Source: an uncultured virus (IMG/VR IMGVR_UViG_3300031994_000078)
Lineage: Duplodnaviria > Heunggongvirae > Uroviricota > Caudoviricetes
Strand: one strand, 5' to 3'
Length of the DNA: 20,000 bases
IMG/VR virus record: IMGVR_UViG_3300031994_000078
Coordinates: 53,055-73,054 of that record
Shown here: positions 2,861 to 16,639 of the stretch, in pieces
How the letters are laid out: each line of letters starts with the position of its first letter
Numbering within the stretch: position 1 is the first letter of the stretch
The notes under the pieces: model-generated
Told to the model about the DNA's origin: nothing
Database searches by the model: none
The model's input: only the letters and a program-made list of their open reading frames with translations
Program-made: the position numbers and the translations under genes

Positions 2861-2881
2861 CCTTGACAAAAGTATCATAAT
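2861..2881 (+). promoter_or_regulatory. CCTTGACA-N4-TATCATAAT motif upstream of tnpB (putative phage promoter)
   Basis: Same motif and spacing as 16269-16289 upstream of the structural genes. Its TTGACA forms a 9-bp inverted repeat with the divergent -35 (TTTTGTCAA 2846-2854 / TTGACAAAA 2863-2871). Confidence 0.55.
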
Positions 2882-2933
2882 TCACATTACAATGTAATAG
2901 AATTTTATGCTAAATTTTTAATTTGTATAAAAA

Positions 2934-4091
2934 ATGATACAACATTATACTTATAATTATCGTTTATATCCAACTAAAAAACAAAGTATTTTATTAGATA
3001 AACACTTTGGATGCACTCGCTTTATCTTTAACTATTATTTAAATAAAGAACAAAATTATTATTTAAATAATAAAGAAAATATTGAAGCTAAAAGGGTTAA
3101 AGGATTTCTTAATTATTACGATAATGCTAAAGATTTAACTAACCTTAAACAAACAACACTTTGGTTAAAAGAAGTTAATTCTCAAACTTTACAATCCACT
3201 TTAAAGAACTTAGAAAGTGCATATAGAGGTTTCTTCCAGAAACGTTCTAAGTTTCCAAGATTTAAGTCTAAAAAGTCTAGACAATCCTTTTGTGTACCAC
3301 AGCACTTATCTATCAAAAATAATAGATTGTATATTCCAAAGTTTAAAGAAGGTATAAAGATAAACCTTCACAGAGACTTAGTTGGAGATTTTGTAACAGC
3401 TTCAATAGTTAAAACAAAAACCAATAAATACTTTGTTAATATAACTGTTGAACTTGATATTAAAGAACTTCCTAAATTAAATACTGATTTAGGTATTGAT
3501 TTAGGTATTAAAAATTTTGTTATAACTTCAAATGGCGAGGTATTTGATAACAAACATTTCTTAAAGAAAGTGGAATCTAAATTAAAATTCTTACAAAGAC
3601 AAGCTAGTAAGAAAGTTAAAGGTTCTAATAACAGAAAGAAAGTCAACTTAAAAGTAGCAGAGTTATTTGAATATATAATAAATTGTAAGAAAGACTATCT
3701 TCATAAAGTAAGCACTCAATTAATTCGTGAAAACCAAACGATTTATATTGAAGACTTAAATATAAAAGGTATGCTTTCTAATCATCATTTAGCTAAAAGT
3801 ATTCAAGAATTATCTTGGTACGAGTTTATAAGAATGCTTGAATATAAAGCTAAATGGTATGGTCGATCTATAATTAAGATTGATCGATTCTATCCATCTT
3901 CAAAGACCTGTAATAACTGTGGCTACATTAAACAAGATTTAACATTGAAAGATCGAAATTGGATATGTCCTAAATGTCACACAGAAGTTGATCGAGATTA
4001 TAATGCAGCACTTAATATTCTTAAACAAGGCAGGAACTGTCTTGTAAAGCCTATGGAGCTGTCTAGTAATAACATAGAAGCTGTGAAATAG
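2934..4091 (+). CDS. tnpB: RNA-guided endonuclease TnpB
   Basis: N-terminal YNYRLYPTKKQ...FGCTRFIFNY; RuvC-I GIDLGIK, RuvC-II IEDLNIKGM, Zn finger CNNC...CPKC, RuvC-III DRDYNAALNI. D-E-D triad intact. Confidence 0.96.
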   Translation: MIQHYTYNYRLYPTKKQSILLDKHFGCTRFIFNYYLNKEQNYYLNNKENIEAKRVKGFLNYYDNAKDLTNLKQTTLWLKEVNSQTLQSTLKNLESAYRGFFQKRSKFPRFKSKKSRQSFCVPQHLSIKNNRLYIPKFKEGIKINLHRDLVGDFVTASIVKTKTNKYFVNITVELDIKELPKLNTDLGIDLGIKNFVITSNGEVFDNKHFLKKVESKLKFLQRQASKKVKGSNNRKKVNLKVAELFEYIINCKKDYLHKVSTQLIRENQTIYIEDLNIKGMLSNHHLAKSIQELSWYEFIRMLEYKAKWYGRSIIKIDRFYPSSKTCNNCGYIKQDLTLKDRNWICPKCHTEVDRDYNAALNILKQGRNCLVKPMELSSNNIEAVK

Positions 4092-9099: not shown

Positions 9100-9615
9100 T
9101 TATTTAATATTCTCATTATATAATATCTTTTTTAAATTGTCAAGTATTTGATTATATTTATCAAAATTAATTTCTACTTTATTTATAATAATATCTTCTA
9201 AATATAAATCAAACAATTGCATACAATACATACAGGAGTTCATTTTACTTGGATAAGCTTTAATATAATTATAAAACAATTCTGAACTATCTTTTAATAA
9301 ACTTTGAAAAAAATCAATAGGTTTTTTATATTGTGTAGTTAATTTATATTTTAAAAATGTAGTTCCTAATTCTTGTTTTATTTCATAAATAGGCTTCTTT
9401 TCCATAAACGAAATTAATGTTAAAGCATCTCCAGACTTTTTACAAGTAAAACAATAAAATGAATTTGTCTTAGGATATATTGTAAGATTAGGTGTATTTT
9501 TATCATTGTGAAATGGACATAAACAAACATATCTATCACCAGACTCTTTTAAATCAAAGTTATAGTGTTTAAAAATTGAAACTATATCTAATTGTGGTAA
9601 ACTAGAAAGTTGCAC
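9100..9615 (-). CDS. Primase CHC2 zinc-finger domain protein without TOPRIM domain
   Basis: CPFHNDKNTPNLTIYPKTNSFYCFTCKKSGDALTLI is the DnaG Zn-binding domain; GTG start with GGAGGAG RBS inside dnaB; only 171 aa. Confidence 0.88.
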   Translation of the reverse strand: MQLSSLPQLDIVSIFKHYNFDLKESGDRYVCLCPFHNDKNTPNLTIYPKTNSFYCFTCKKSGDALTLISFMEKKPIYEIKQELGTTFLKYKLTTQYKKPIDFFQSLLKDSSELFYNYIKAYPSKMNSCMYCMQLFDLYLEDIIINKVEINFDKYNQILDNLKKILYNENIK

Positions 9616-12227: not shown

Positions 12228-13457
12228 TTAAATCTCCTTTAACCAATCTTCTGCGTCTTCAACTGTCCAAAATATCTTATAATTAAGTTTATTCTTCTTA
12301 AAACATTCAAGCTTTCTCACATCTAAATCTGTCCATACATATATTGCATTTTTATAAAACTTTGTATTTTTACTTTCATATAAATTTAATATTTTCTTAT
12401 GCTCTATACTATCTTTATTAAAACTTCCTAAACATCTGTCATGATACCAGCCATGAGTCCAATGTCCATTGTATTCTATATACAGGTCTAAGCTCTTAAT
12501 GTAAAAGTCACAAGCAAAAGGATATAAATCACTTTTATATTGTCTAATAATATCACTTTTGTTAAACTTTGTCAAGAGTAGACTGTATATTTTCTCTTCA
12601 GATTTAGATTTATTATATGAATTATTTTTACGCAATGTTGCATTACGTTTAGATACAATATTAAATTTATTTAATTGATATTGTTTTTTCCACACATCTG
12701 TTTTTGCATAATTATCGACACCATATTTTTTAATACAAGTATCTTTTAATTTAACAACACAAGCTTTTAATTTCATAGGATTATCAACATTAAATCTTTC
12801 AATATTAGTACGTTTTACCTTATCTTTGCACTCTTTAGTTTTACTATAATTATCAACACCATATTTTTGTTTATATGTATTTTTACTATGTTCTAAAATA
12901 ATAGGTTTTTTTAATTTATAATCTTCAGATTGTGAATAATATTCAACACCATATTTTTGTTTACAAGCTTTCTTCATCTTATCTTGTATAATATTTATTT
13001 TTTGTTTATAGTCATTTGACTTACTATAATTATCTACACCATATTTTTTCAGTAATGTAGCCTTTACTTTTAATCTAATATCTTTCTGTTTATCTTGTAT
13101 AGTCTTTTTGTATATATCAGTTTTACTAAAAGTAGCAACACCATATTTCTTTAAGCAAGTTTGTTTACACCTTTCTTTTGTTGTAGGTAAACTTTGGTTA
13201 TATATACCTGCACACTTTAAACTACAAAAAGTACTATAGTAATTCTTTTTATAGTTATAATTAATCACTTTTTTACAATTTTTACAAATGAAAATTTTAT
13301 CTAGTGCTATATTATTATTTAAACGATAGCATAATTCTACAAAACTTAAATTATATTTATGTAAAACATCTTTAATTTCTTGATTTAAAAATTTAGATTC
13401 TAATAATTTATATCTACAATTTTTATGAGATTTAATATATTCTAATAAATGTTGCAT
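12228..13457 (-). CDS. Free-standing putative homing endonuclease: Zn ribbon, six KxTxxxKYGV repeats, C-terminal PD-(D/E)XK/Vsr-like nuclease domain
   Basis: CKNC...FCSLKC; repeated KKYGV/QKYGV units; SKSEEKIY...FACDFYI...YIEYNGHWTHG. Confidence 0.75.
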   Translation of the reverse strand: MQHLLEYIKSHKNCRYKLLESKFLNQEIKDVLHKYNLSFVELCYRLNNNIALDKIFICKNCKKVINYNYKKNYYSTFCSLKCAGIYNQSLPTTKERCKQTCLKKYGVATFSKTDIYKKTIQDKQKDIRLKVKATLLKKYGVDNYSKSNDYKQKINIIQDKMKKACKQKYGVEYYSQSEDYKLKKPIILEHSKNTYKQKYGVDNYSKTKECKDKVKRTNIERFNVDNPMKLKACVVKLKDTCIKKYGVDNYAKTDVWKKQYQLNKFNIVSKRNATLRKNNSYNKSKSEEKIYSLLLTKFNKSDIIRQYKSDLYPFACDFYIKSLDLYIEYNGHWTHGWYHDRCLGSFNKDSIEHKKILNLYESKNTKFYKNAIYVWTDLDVRKLECFKKNKLNYKIFWTVEDAEDWLKEI

Positions 13458-15768: not shown

Positions 15769-15800
15769 TTCAATTCTCCTTTCCATATAAATTTCTTAAG

Positions 15801-15829
15801 ATTATACTAAATTTTATTTTAAATGTCAA
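15801..15829 (-). promoter_or_regulatory. Perfect sigma70-type promoter for the replication operon
   Basis: TTGACA (15829-15824), 17-nt spacer, TATAAT (15806-15801). Confidence 0.88.
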
Positions 15830-15838
15830 GACTTTAAG

Positions 15839-16208
15839 ATAGGACTTAAATTTGTTAATTTGGGATTTTTTAAATAAACTTAATTTCAAATATTTTTTAT
15901 TTCCCACAGCTTTCTTTTTTCTTGAAAAAGAAAAAAGAAATTAAAGTGAAGTTATACTTAAACTTTAATTTACTAATGTCCTAAGTTAACGTGGTTAGCT
16001 TCTTCTGTTTCTAGGTATATTAAGCTAATGAATAACCATCAGTATTAGGGCTTCCCTCAATTATACAAAGGAAGTTGCATACTATATACTTACTAGTATA
16101 TACATTTGTACGTTGTATACTTCCTATTTCCCAACGCTGTAGTAGTGAGCAGGAGCTTTATCATTCCTGATATTATAGTCGTAGACACTACTAGCAGATT
16201 TATCCTAC
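15839..16208 (-). ncRNA. Candidate structured non-coding RNA (~370 nt), family not recognised
   Basis: Own perfect promoter, no ORF in the track, multiple stems, and a 5'/3' closing stem with G-U pairs on the minus strand. Confidence 0.6.
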
Positions 16209-16215
16209 GGTACGT

Positions 16216-16244
16216 ATTATAATATAAAAGTAAATAAATGTCAA
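16216..16244 (-). promoter_or_regulatory. Perfect sigma70-type promoter driving the ORF-free structured region
   Basis: TTGACA (16244-16239), 17-nt spacer, TATAAT (16221-16216). Confidence 0.88.
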
Positions 16245-16268
16245 GTAGTTTTTTATAAATTTATTTAC

Positions 16269-16289
16269 CCTTGACATTTATATCATAAT
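16269..16289 (+). promoter_or_regulatory. CCTTGACA-N4-TATCATAAT motif upstream of the structural operon (putative phage/late promoter)
   Basis: Matches 2861-2881 at 17 of 21 positions; no consensus -10 at 17-nt spacing. Confidence 0.55.
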
Positions 16290-16336
16290 CCTTTTATTTT
16301 TAATAGTATTTATATTATTTAAAAGAGGTGTTTTTT

Positions 16337-16639
16337 ATGGCAAATATTGCATATGTACCAGTAACAAAAGACTGGACACTAGTAACAGACTTAATAGGCA
16401 ATGGGTTTTCTTTTGATTCAAGTACTTTATACGTTATTGAGGCAAGAGGTTTAGGTGATGTATTACTTTTAGATTCAGATACAGAACCTGCCACAGATAG
16501 TTACAGTGGCATAAAGTTAGATGGTGCTGGTTATAAAATTGCAAAATATACTCCGACAGATAGCACAAATTTATATATTAGATTGAACCGTAATTCATTA
16601 GAATCAGGAATTAATATTAGTACAGAAGAAGGAGAATAA
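16337..16639 (+). CDS. Small beta-rich hypothetical protein, probably virion-associated
   Basis: ATG at 16337 behind a GAGGTG RBS; first gene of the plus-strand unit. Confidence 0.65.
   Translation: MANIAYVPVTKDWTLVTDLIGNGFSFDSSTLYVIEARGLGDVLLLDSDTEPATDSYSGIKLDGAGYKIAKYTPTDSTNLYIRLNRNSLESGINISTEEGE

Follow-up and report, generated by a model that had tools for sequence, protein, structure and literature searches.

Large phages are known for taking over their hosts by means of proteins, and conserved RNAs of several hundred nucleotides (nt) with complex folds are rare. The pRNA of phi29, ROOL and GOLLD each opened a new line of work. pRNA acts in trans as a protein-binding scaffold, and in phi29 the early replication operon likewise carries tandem promoters; ColE1 uses a structured RNA, RNA II, as a primer. 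GOLLD and ROOL are among three large ornate RNAs for which three-dimensional structures from cryogenic electron microscopy are presented in 10.1101/2024.12.08.627333. Here we describe a conserved, structured, non-coding element of about 321 nt that lies behind a consensus promoter at the head of the replication operon of an uncultured Caudoviricetes virus. It was found on the minus strand of a 20,000-nt stretch of DNA (the window; positions 53,055 to 73,054 of IMG/VR record IMGVR_UViG_3300031994_000078), to which all coordinates refer unless stated otherwise. We favour the tentative reading, to which we give a probability of roughly 40%, that the interval is the gene for a new structured non-coding RNA, made early and free to act in trans, as a scaffold or decoy that offers two sites to a partner evolving along with it.

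Like ROOL and GOLLD, the element is phage-borne, hundreds of nt long, rich in helices and strongly conserved in sequence and structure; it has no open reading frame (ORF), and its function is not evident from the sequence. It differs from both in that it does not match their Rfam models, is smaller (~320 nt), does not lie beside tRNA genes and consists of a linear row of hairpins with a 5' pseudoknot, whereas theirs is a large multi-branch fold. With phi29 pRNA it shares its occurrence in a phage and a host-type promoter of its own near an early replication operon. However, it has no Rfam hit, its size, fold and phage type are different, and pRNA forms rings via complementary loops while the motifs of the element are direct, non-complementary repeats. 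The put RNA of HK022 and the Bacillus EAR element are likewise promoter-proximal structured RNAs without an ORF at the start of a long operon. In contrast to these, the element is several-fold larger, has no Rfam hit, is bypassed by a conserved second promoter and is not directly followed by a terminator that would need suppression. Finally, tandem promoters that fire into an A+T-rich stretch beside replication genes recall the T7 primary origin and ColE1, but the skew signal is here confounded by gene orientation, and we saw no conserved antisense promoter of the RNA I type, only a 9/12 match on the plus strand. By analogy, the closest functional parallels of the element would be the large orphan RNAs of phages (ROOL, GOLLD) or a scaffold of the pRNA type, to none of which it shows demonstrable homology, and it appears to constitute a new RNA family outside Rfam.

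Promoters and boundaries of the element

The window forms the final 20 kb of a 73,054-base IMG/VR record (28% G+C, estimated 38% complete), which in turn corresponds to positions 76514-149567 of the 300,445-base viral contig G001, rated 98% complete. The phage is large (jumbo) and originates from animal-gut metagenomes. The element sits in a 550-nt divergent intergenic region (15787-16334), in which the following features are found in the direction of transcription:

16244-16216, minus strand: promoter P1, with TTGACA at 16244-16239, 17 nt, and TATAAT at 16221-16216
16208 to ~15888, minus strand: conserved structured non-coding element, predicted RNA of ~321 nt, with G16208 or C16209 as the predicted 5' end; its 3' limit is set by the end of conservation
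15887-15830, minus strand: unconserved A+T-rich spacer of 58 nt (16-19% G+C), whose length varies in relatives
15829-15801, minus strand: promoter P2 of the replication operon, with TTGACA at 15829-15824, 17 nt, and TATAAT at 15806-15801; the first ORF starts at 15786

Homologues were gathered via the neighbouring phosphoesterase gene and with DNA patterns. We obtained seven sequences, five of them distinct, from four lineages. These are the window itself (identical to the G001 DNA), the contigs L006, L053 and L054 (92-93% identical to the window), L056 and L193 (~80%), and finally L055, which is beyond the reach of blastn and was detected only by nhmmer (E 3e-5) and with covariance models (E 2.6e-6 and 6e-9). 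In all seven the element lies upstream of the phosphoesterase operon with constant orientation and constant promoter spacing.

An earlier reading of the window, made without database searches (the sequence-only reading), had placed a consensus promoter at 16244-16216 that fires into the interval, and a second perfect promoter at 15829 that would make the operon independent of the first. Indeed, both are exact TTGACA-N17-TATAAT matches on the minus strand. The 73-kb record holds five such perfect sites, all on the minus strand, while ~0.1 are expected for both strands together; in first-order Markov simulations, 30 of 300 sequences had at least one perfect site and the maximum was two. Behind the perfect promoters at 9143 and 2854 an ORF starts ~25-40 nt further on, and P1 is the sole one among them that reads into a long non-coding stretch. 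A promoter occupies the P1 position in all seven homologous sequences, as TTGACA-N17-TATAAT in the window, L006, L053 and L054, as TTGACA-N17-TATACT in L056 and L193, and as TTGACT-N18-TATAAT with a TG extension in L055. P2 is conserved in the six relatives in which it could be read whole and lies 10-60 nt downstream of the element in the relatives read. Because P2 is kept, the operon can be expressed without the RNA, just as had been proposed.

Between the -10 box of P1 and a conserved CCRUAGGAUA there are always five variable nt, which places the onset of conservation at the predicted transcription start, 16208/16209. At the other end conservation breaks off right behind copy 2 of a direct repeat, a limit that L056 and L193 illustrate: they are near-identical through the RNA, unalignable past repeat copy 2 and alignable again at P2. 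Since conservation extends from the predicted +1 position to the end of repeat copy 2, we set the element at ~321 nt (16208 to ~15888), shorter than the interval of ~370 nt assumed earlier. It is the best-conserved stretch of the region, with 92-93% identity to L006 and L053 compared with 79-84% for the neighbouring genes, and nearly all of its nucleotides, loops included, have been kept while the genes of the same lineages drifted apart. L055 still shows 74% identity in the adjacent gene; here the RNA sequence has turned over and the architecture is retained.

Additional searches outlined the distribution. With nhmmer --max over 131 loci, L055 was the sole new homologue, and the core covariance model R1, run over 100 loci including distant relatives of the phosphoesterase gene, returned only the seven known sequences (next E values 2.2 and 4.4). 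The neighbouring phosphoesterase itself has at least 15 relatives on Logan/ENA contigs, with identities of 67-77%. L193 is a 3.8-kb contig (G003 contig 43) that carries the RNA and the start of the operon and is binned in a ~1.2-Mb metagenome-assembled genome titled 'Bacilli bacterium', which is either a weak hint at the host or a binning artefact; R1 found no further match in 151 genomes of the family of this assembly (1/151, L193 itself). Distant-mode blastn with 701 nt gave no match in the phage GenBank collection. In IMG/VR, the matches of an 18-mer were confined to the L006 contig and the phage of the window itself, a scan with CTAAT-N3-4-ATGGTTATTYATTA gave 39 stretches (38 unrelated and coding-like, one from the own phage), and a 5'-domain pattern gave four, two of them unrelated. 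The same pattern scan in the genome collection furnished nine stretches, with one true homologue (L193) and eight unrelated ones.

Secondary structure and covariation

An RNAalifold draft on five sequences contained 90 pairs, 10 of them with a compensatory change. For the pair counts, two covariance models were built from the four closer lineages and all seven sequences were aligned to them. The resulting helices are:

16209-16204 (CGUAGG) with 16185-16180 (UCUACG), minus strand: H1, pseudoknot helix; 6 pairs, 100% paired, one compensatory change from G-C to A-U and one change from G-U to G-C
16197-16186 (CUG-C-UAGUAGUG) with 16147-16137 (CACUACUA-CAG), minus strand: H2; 7 of 11 pairs changed on both sides
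16169-16165 (CAGGA) with 16154-16150 (UCCUG), minus strand: H3, inside H2; 4 of 5 pairs changed on both sides (CAGGA/UCCUG, AAGGA/UCCUU, CAUAG/CUAUG)
16137-16132 (GCGUUG) with 16115-16110 (CAACGU), minus strand: weak hairpin overlapping repeat copy 1; 6 pairs, 1 compensatory, 2 broken in L056
16102-16083 (UAUAUACU / AGUAUAUA), minus strand: hairpin H5; 6 pairs, 100% paired, 1 compensatory, 3 one-sided G-U changes
16083-16079 (AGUAU) with 16045-16041 (AUACU), minus strand: H6, enclosing H7; 1 of 5 pairs changed on both sides, all cells paired
16074-16066 (CUUCCUUUG) with 16059-16051 (UGAGGGAAG), minus strand: H7 with the loop UAUAAU; 5 of 9 pairs changed on both sides, all cells paired
16028-16022 (UUAGCUU) with 16001-15995 (AAGCUAA), minus strand: H8; 2 of 7 pairs compensatory (G-C, A-U and U-A variants)
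15971-15938 (AAAUUAAAGU / ACUUUAAUUU), minus strand: hairpin H9
15940-15911, minus strand: H10, perfect A-U-rich hairpin of 13 bp with no U tail behind it

The UCUACG strand of H1 follows directly 3' of the first strand of H2, and H1 crosses H2, which gives an H-type pseudoknot. H6 and H7 are connected by the conserved joints GCAA and CCCUA. H8 is extended by GG 16037-16036 with CC 15994-15993 across a conserved 7-nt bulge, UUAUUCA, with base pairs that vary from G-C to G-U, and its loop carries the conserved UAUACCUA. The last two hairpins were followed into the relatives by eye. H9 appears as AAUUAGAGUG/CACUUUAAUU in L006, as AAUAGAGUG/CACUUUAUU with one whole pair deleted in L056 and as AAUAAA/UUUAUU in L055, while H10 has its counterparts in CUUUCGC/GCGAAAG of L056 and L193 and in UUUUCU/AGAAAA of L055.

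In the core (H5, H6, H7 and H8), all 141 cells of the 29 pairs are standard pairs and nine pairs are changed on both sides. None of 500 column shuffles was as good, and slid controls gave 0-2 such pairs with 34-45% pairing. The 5' domain contains 22 pairs including the pseudoknot, with 94.5% of the cells paired and 12 pairs changed on both sides. Its unpaired cells all fall in H2 of L056 and L193, where the bulge is relocated; read by eye, H2 is complete there with a shifted bulge. Taken together, core and 5' domain have 21 compensatory pairs, compared with 0-3 in the slid controls, and 0 of 500 shuffles reach the observed value. The helices are thus kept by compensatory substitutions beyond the controls, which strongly supports a real, selected element that acts at the level of RNA, and we consider such an element highly probable. 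An alternative pairing of the 5' end, PK2, would join UAGG-A-UAAAU to AUAUACCUA in the H8 loop (16019-16011). It is found in 44 of 45 cells (97.8%) but is nearly invariant, and 195 of 500 shuffles are as good.

The strand is indicated by three observations. The orientation of P1, the onset of conservation at +1 and the G-U pairs, which fill 26 of the 141 core cells and would be A-C mismatches on the opposite strand, all point to the minus strand.

The sequence-only reading had drawn eight stems and expected them to be conserved and to covary in relatives. This expectation is borne out, over five distinct sequences, for six of them, which are kept with compensatory changes: 16193-16186/16147-16140, 16169-16165/16154-16150, 16102-16095/16090-16083, 16028-16022/16001-15995, 15971-15962/15947-15938 and the 13-bp hairpin at 15911-15940. 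The two others had to be given up. The helix 16208-16198/15851-15839, thought to close the whole interval, has its 3' arm GUCCUAU inside the unconserved spacer, and this arm is present in only two of the seven sequences (window and L053). In the stem 16125-16119/16075-16069 the segment ACUUCCUUUG was mis-paired; it pairs instead with UGAGGGAAG (16059-16051) through five covarying pairs.

The twin direct repeat

Two features go beyond the earlier reading, the 5' pseudoknot and a pair of direct repeats that evolve in concert:

16138-16117, minus strand: repeat copy 1, AGCGUUGGGAAAUAGGAAGUAU, directly behind the 3' strand of H2 and partly in the weak hairpin
15911-15890, minus strand: repeat copy 2, AGCUGUGGGAAAUAAAAAAUAU, directly behind the 3' strand of H10, at the 3' edge of conservation

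The 22-nt repeat, with copies 227 nt apart, is present in every lineage, each time with a lineage-specific sequence. It reads AGC..KGGGAAAU in the window and the L006 group, CAUCAGAAAAUAA in L056 and L193, and CUGGCAURRGGAUG in L055. Match scores are 8-14.5 within a lineage and only 4-7.5 between lineage groups; the observed scores were reached by 1, 6, 0 and 3 of 300 shuffles. The extended motif occurs at only these two sites in the 300-kb contig, which rules it out as a genome-wide promoter motif. A CsrA sponge based on GGA motifs was also rejected, since the repeat of L056 and L193 contains no GGA.

Concerted change of two non-complementary sites is what one would expect for two binding sites of a single co-evolving partner, and the twin motif therefore suggests that a partner may be bound. 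Other explanations of the concerted change would be gene conversion or a processing signal common to both sites.

Coding potential, known families and expression

No ORF of at least 40 amino acids (aa) lies within 15908-16314, and no short ORF is conserved in frame among four homologues. The longest sense ORFs of these (31, 43, 46 and 39 aa) differ in frame and sequence, and the window and L006 are out of frame with each other owing to an indel. The mini-ORF AUG-GUU-AUU-CAU-UAG was discarded because its start codon is lost in the L006 group. The interval is thus ORF-free, as had been stated.

The 4227 models of Rfam 15, which include riboswitches, 6S, SRP, RNase P, tmRNA, pRNA, ROOL, GOLLD, EAR, T-box, introns and ribozymes, gave no match at the gathering score in the whole window. 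When E values up to 10 were admitted for 701 nt, five matches appeared, all of them noise; the best had an E value of 1.3 and scored 17.5 bits, where the gathering score is 80. ARAGORN found no tRNA or tmRNA genes in the window. The Rfam search proposed earlier thus agrees with the claim that the interval belongs to no known family. We also considered an RNase P RNA, because GAGGGAAGCCC and ACAGAAGAAGCUAA resemble the CR-I and CR-V consensus. These look-alikes pair locally, in the covarying H7 and H8, and form no long-range P4 helix, so that this candidate was dropped; RNase P models likewise gave no match, even with E values up to 10.

As a whole, the sequence-only reading holds for the promoters, the lack of an ORF, the G+C content and six stems, and it fails for the closing helix and the one mis-paired stem. 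Its proposal of a phage-encoded structured non-coding RNA or long leader with its own promoter is supported by the conservation from +1, the compensatory pairs and the absence of an ORF. Of the features by which an independent small RNA gene is recognized, the element has its own promoter (7/7 homologues) and lacks an intrinsic terminator.

Full-text literature searching gave no description of this RNA. An IMG/VR-based catalogue lists 10,006 candidate viral RNAs (PMC10690425), and neither contig number appears in its searchable supplements, a statement that does not extend to three supplement files. In this catalogue pairs above 200 bits were dropped and at least three unique regions were required, filters that would probably have excluded the present family.

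A hint of expression comes from an RNA library labelled bovine gut metagenome, in which one 184-nt contig falls wholly inside the element (16014-16197) with one difference from the window. An RNA library thus contains a near-identical sequence, which runs continuously across repeat copy 1. Three public RNA runs each contained a small share of the query words. In the first (X1) the flanking genes have no cover, which proves nothing; the second (X2) is probably DNA of a relative, and the pieces from the third (X3) are short, loose-ended and unrelated.

Interpretation

The promoters, boundaries, conserved structure, strand and repeats of the element, together with its lack of a known family, are shown by the analysis; its transcription, 3' end, action in trans and partner are inferred. 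On the reading that we favour, the host RNA polymerase with sigma-70 or sigma-A would initiate at P1 once the DNA enters the cell. The RNA would fold from its first nucleotides, beginning with the 5' pseudoknot domain (H1/H2/H3) and followed by the row of hairpins H5, H6/H7, H8, H9 and H10. It would display two copies of a lineage-specific single-stranded motif, one behind H2 and one behind H10, and would act in trans as a scaffold or decoy that binds two partner molecules or one dimer of them; this partner would co-evolve with the motif and would most likely be a phage protein. P2 would drive the replication genes independently. We prefer a free trans-acting RNA for three reasons. First, with P2 conserved downstream, most operon transcripts would lack the element. 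Second, nearly every nucleotide is conserved, loops included, despite the drift of the genes. Third, the twin motif hints at a bound partner.

Several points weigh against this reading. Folding energy alone does not pick the strand, because the plus strand scores lower. For the 370-nt interval the minus strand gave z -3.03 (0 of 100 shuffles as good) and the plus strand z -4.72; for the 321-nt element the values are -2.66 (2 of 100 shuffles) and -3.42. The minus strand thus folds better than the shuffled controls, as had been anticipated, and the plus strand better still. Both alignments behind the pair counts had been adjusted to the structure by means of the covariance models, which favours pairing. 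Moreover, the family is narrow, with five distinct sequences in four lineages, and for this reason many compensatory changes fall on one or two branches. The 184-nt contig gives neither strand nor ends and may be DNA carry-over. Beyond chance 10-mers, we found no third segment complementary to the repeats and no phage target, and Pfam scans of 248 of the 373 predicted ORFs of the 300-kb contig gave no RNA-binding family adjoining the element. Finally, there is no intrinsic terminator between 16208 and 15786, H10 being A-U-rich and followed by GCUGUGGG, and transcripts from P1 may therefore run into the operon as a leader.

This last point leads to the strongest alternative, which is possible but in our view unlikely, namely a cis-acting long leader. 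Transcripts from P1 would carry a structured 5' leader of the replication operon that alters the fate of that transcript only. The 5'-terminal pseudoknot could block a 5' exonuclease, or the polymerase could be made resistant to termination as with put RNA and EAR, while P2 transcripts stay unmodified. Read-through would be expected by default, since no terminator separates the element from P2 or from the first gene. Additionally, the structure begins at the extreme 5' end, all seven sequences have the element immediately upstream of this operon and in one orientation, and the operon contains a terminator-like hairpin (7587-7559). However, P2 is conserved 10-60 nt downstream in the relatives read, so that most operon transcripts would bypass the leader. 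A length of ~320 nt with ten helices and near-complete conservation is far beyond the needs of known stabilisers or put-type elements. The spacer between element and P2 is unconserved and variable in length, and the first downstream gene differs, the 100-aa ORF being absent in L055.

Less probable again, though worth considering, is a transcription-activated replication origin, in which P1 (and P2) would fire into the origin as in the T7 primary origin, T4 ori(uvsY) and ori(34), or with RNA II of ColE1. The transcript, or the displaced sense strand with the same hairpins, would prime or load the replisome at the A+T-rich spacer, and the repeats would be iteron-like sites; the sense DNA strand would fold likewise. 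The position fits. The element heads an operon with DnaB, a DnaC-like loader, primase, RecA and a family-A polymerase, and it lies exactly at the cumulative GC-skew minimum of the 300-kb contig (~145 kb), but this minimum coincides with a switch in gene orientation that is sufficient alone to produce it. An A+T-rich stretch (16% G+C) follows the element behind two strong promoters in tandem, yet this composition is shared by all intergenic DNA of the region. The concerted evolution of the direct repeats resembles that of iterons with their initiator, but there are only two of them, 227 nt apart, without a tandem iteron array, and no initiator protein was recognised. The onset of conservation at +1 and the G-U-tolerant covariation fit an RNA, and equally a sense single strand, but not duplex DNA.

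We regard it as improbable that the repeats are cleavage or 3'-end signals for one sequence-specific enzyme. Such twin-site processing would yield a short isoform of ~90 nt and a long one of ~320 nt, or release a core of ~227 nt, possibly circularised by phage RNA ligases. The same lineage-specific motif does occur twice in an identical structural context, each copy lying immediately 3' of a long helix, with copy 2 coinciding with the 3' edge of conservation, and the 300-kb contig encodes RtcB and two RNA ligases. The 184-nt RNA-library contig, however, is uninterrupted across copy 1 (16014-16197), no nuclease candidate is found nearby, and the ligase genes are ~60-100 kb distant, where the contig differs in G+C content and may represent a separate module. 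There is a slim chance that a phage-specific RNA enzyme cuts twice and that the ~227-nt core (H5-H10) is sealed by the phage RtcB or RNA ligases into a circular or end-protected RNA; if true, a circular or processed structured RNA made by a phage would be of a kind not described for bacteriophages.

That the interval has no function of its own, as a decayed gene or a neutral spacer between promoters with chance stems, would suit a plus strand that folds as well or better and the small number of lineages, but is very improbable given that the element is the best-conserved stretch of the region, has 21 compensatory pairs against 0-3 in slid controls, keeps its architecture in L055 despite sequence turnover and shows no ORF remnant.

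Genomic setting

The minus-strand operon downstream of P2 encodes a small basic 100-aa protein, a metallophosphoesterase, a RuvC-like resolvase, a DnaC-like loader, DnaB helicase and a primase zinc-finger protein; farther along on this side follow RecA, SbcCD-like proteins and a family-A DNA polymerase. In L055 (2868-3000), P2 is followed by a perfect 13-bp inverted repeat (GGCTGATATAGTC...GGCTATATCAGCC) and then by the phosphoesterase gene. The terminator-like hairpin at 7587-7559 (minus strand; 13 pairs followed by TTTT) is situated between two operon ORFs and is the first such site downstream of P2. The plus-strand genes upstream of the element encode large proteins without a family match and, beyond them, baseplate and sheath-initiator proteins. 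The G+C fraction is 0.31-0.38 at 16000-16200 and 0.16-0.21 in the flanks (15800-15900 and 16200-16350), in accord with the earlier remark that the core is richer in G+C than other intergenic DNA here.

One further feature of the neighbourhood, which is not part of the RNA, stands back-to-back with P1:

16269-16289, plus strand: divergent promoter-like motif, CCTTGACA-N5-ATCATAAT, conserved in relatives

Motifs of this class, CCTTGACA-N5-(T)ATCATAAT, in which TTGACA and CATAAT are merely 7 nt apart, are also found at 2861-2882 (plus strand) and at five more sites in the 73-kb record. There are seven exact copies of CTTGACA-N7-CATAAT in 73 kb and two more with CATATT. Most copies have an ATG within the next 75 nt, and one precedes a TnpB gene. 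The class may represent a phage-specific promoter type.

Primase appears to be split into a 171-aa CHC2 zinc-finger protein (9100-9615, minus strand) and a 229-aa DnaG_N/Toprim protein (G001 126096-126785, minus strand), ~13 kb apart. G001 contains four IS605-type TnpB genes (OrfB_IS605 with a Cas12f1-like TNB domain), at 2934-4091 of the window (plus strand) and at 164317-165456, 190750-191937 and 251626-252780 of G001; one of the four is located inside the replication operon on the opposite strand. The contig has a replication module at ~120-145 kb (family-A polymerase, DnaB, split primase, RecA and SbcCD) and a second one at ~200-245 kb (DnaE-type Pol III alpha, DnaB, DnaG, RecA, SbcCD, ribonucleotide reductase, RtcB and RNA ligases), and its G+C content drops from ~28% to ~22% between ~157 and 280 kb. 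The two modules and the G+C shift could reflect a mosaic genome or a chimeric assembly. DUF7487 proteins recur many times in G001 (10 of 248 scanned ORFs); relatives of the copy in the window (12228-13457, minus strand) are labelled as homing endonucleases by PHROGs. Inteins were found in several large genes of G001, among them those for RtcB, the ribonucleotide reductase large subunit and a 1027-aa protein.

Conclusions

In summary, the element is unusually well defined from its sequence, with an exact predicted start, a clear 3' limit, about ten helices supported by covariation, a 5' pseudoknot and two co-evolving motifs, and it is located at the first promoter of the replication module. Its narrow distribution limits the immediate impact. 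The element could nevertheless reveal an early RNA-based device for host takeover or for the evasion of defence, or the way in which such phages begin to replicate.

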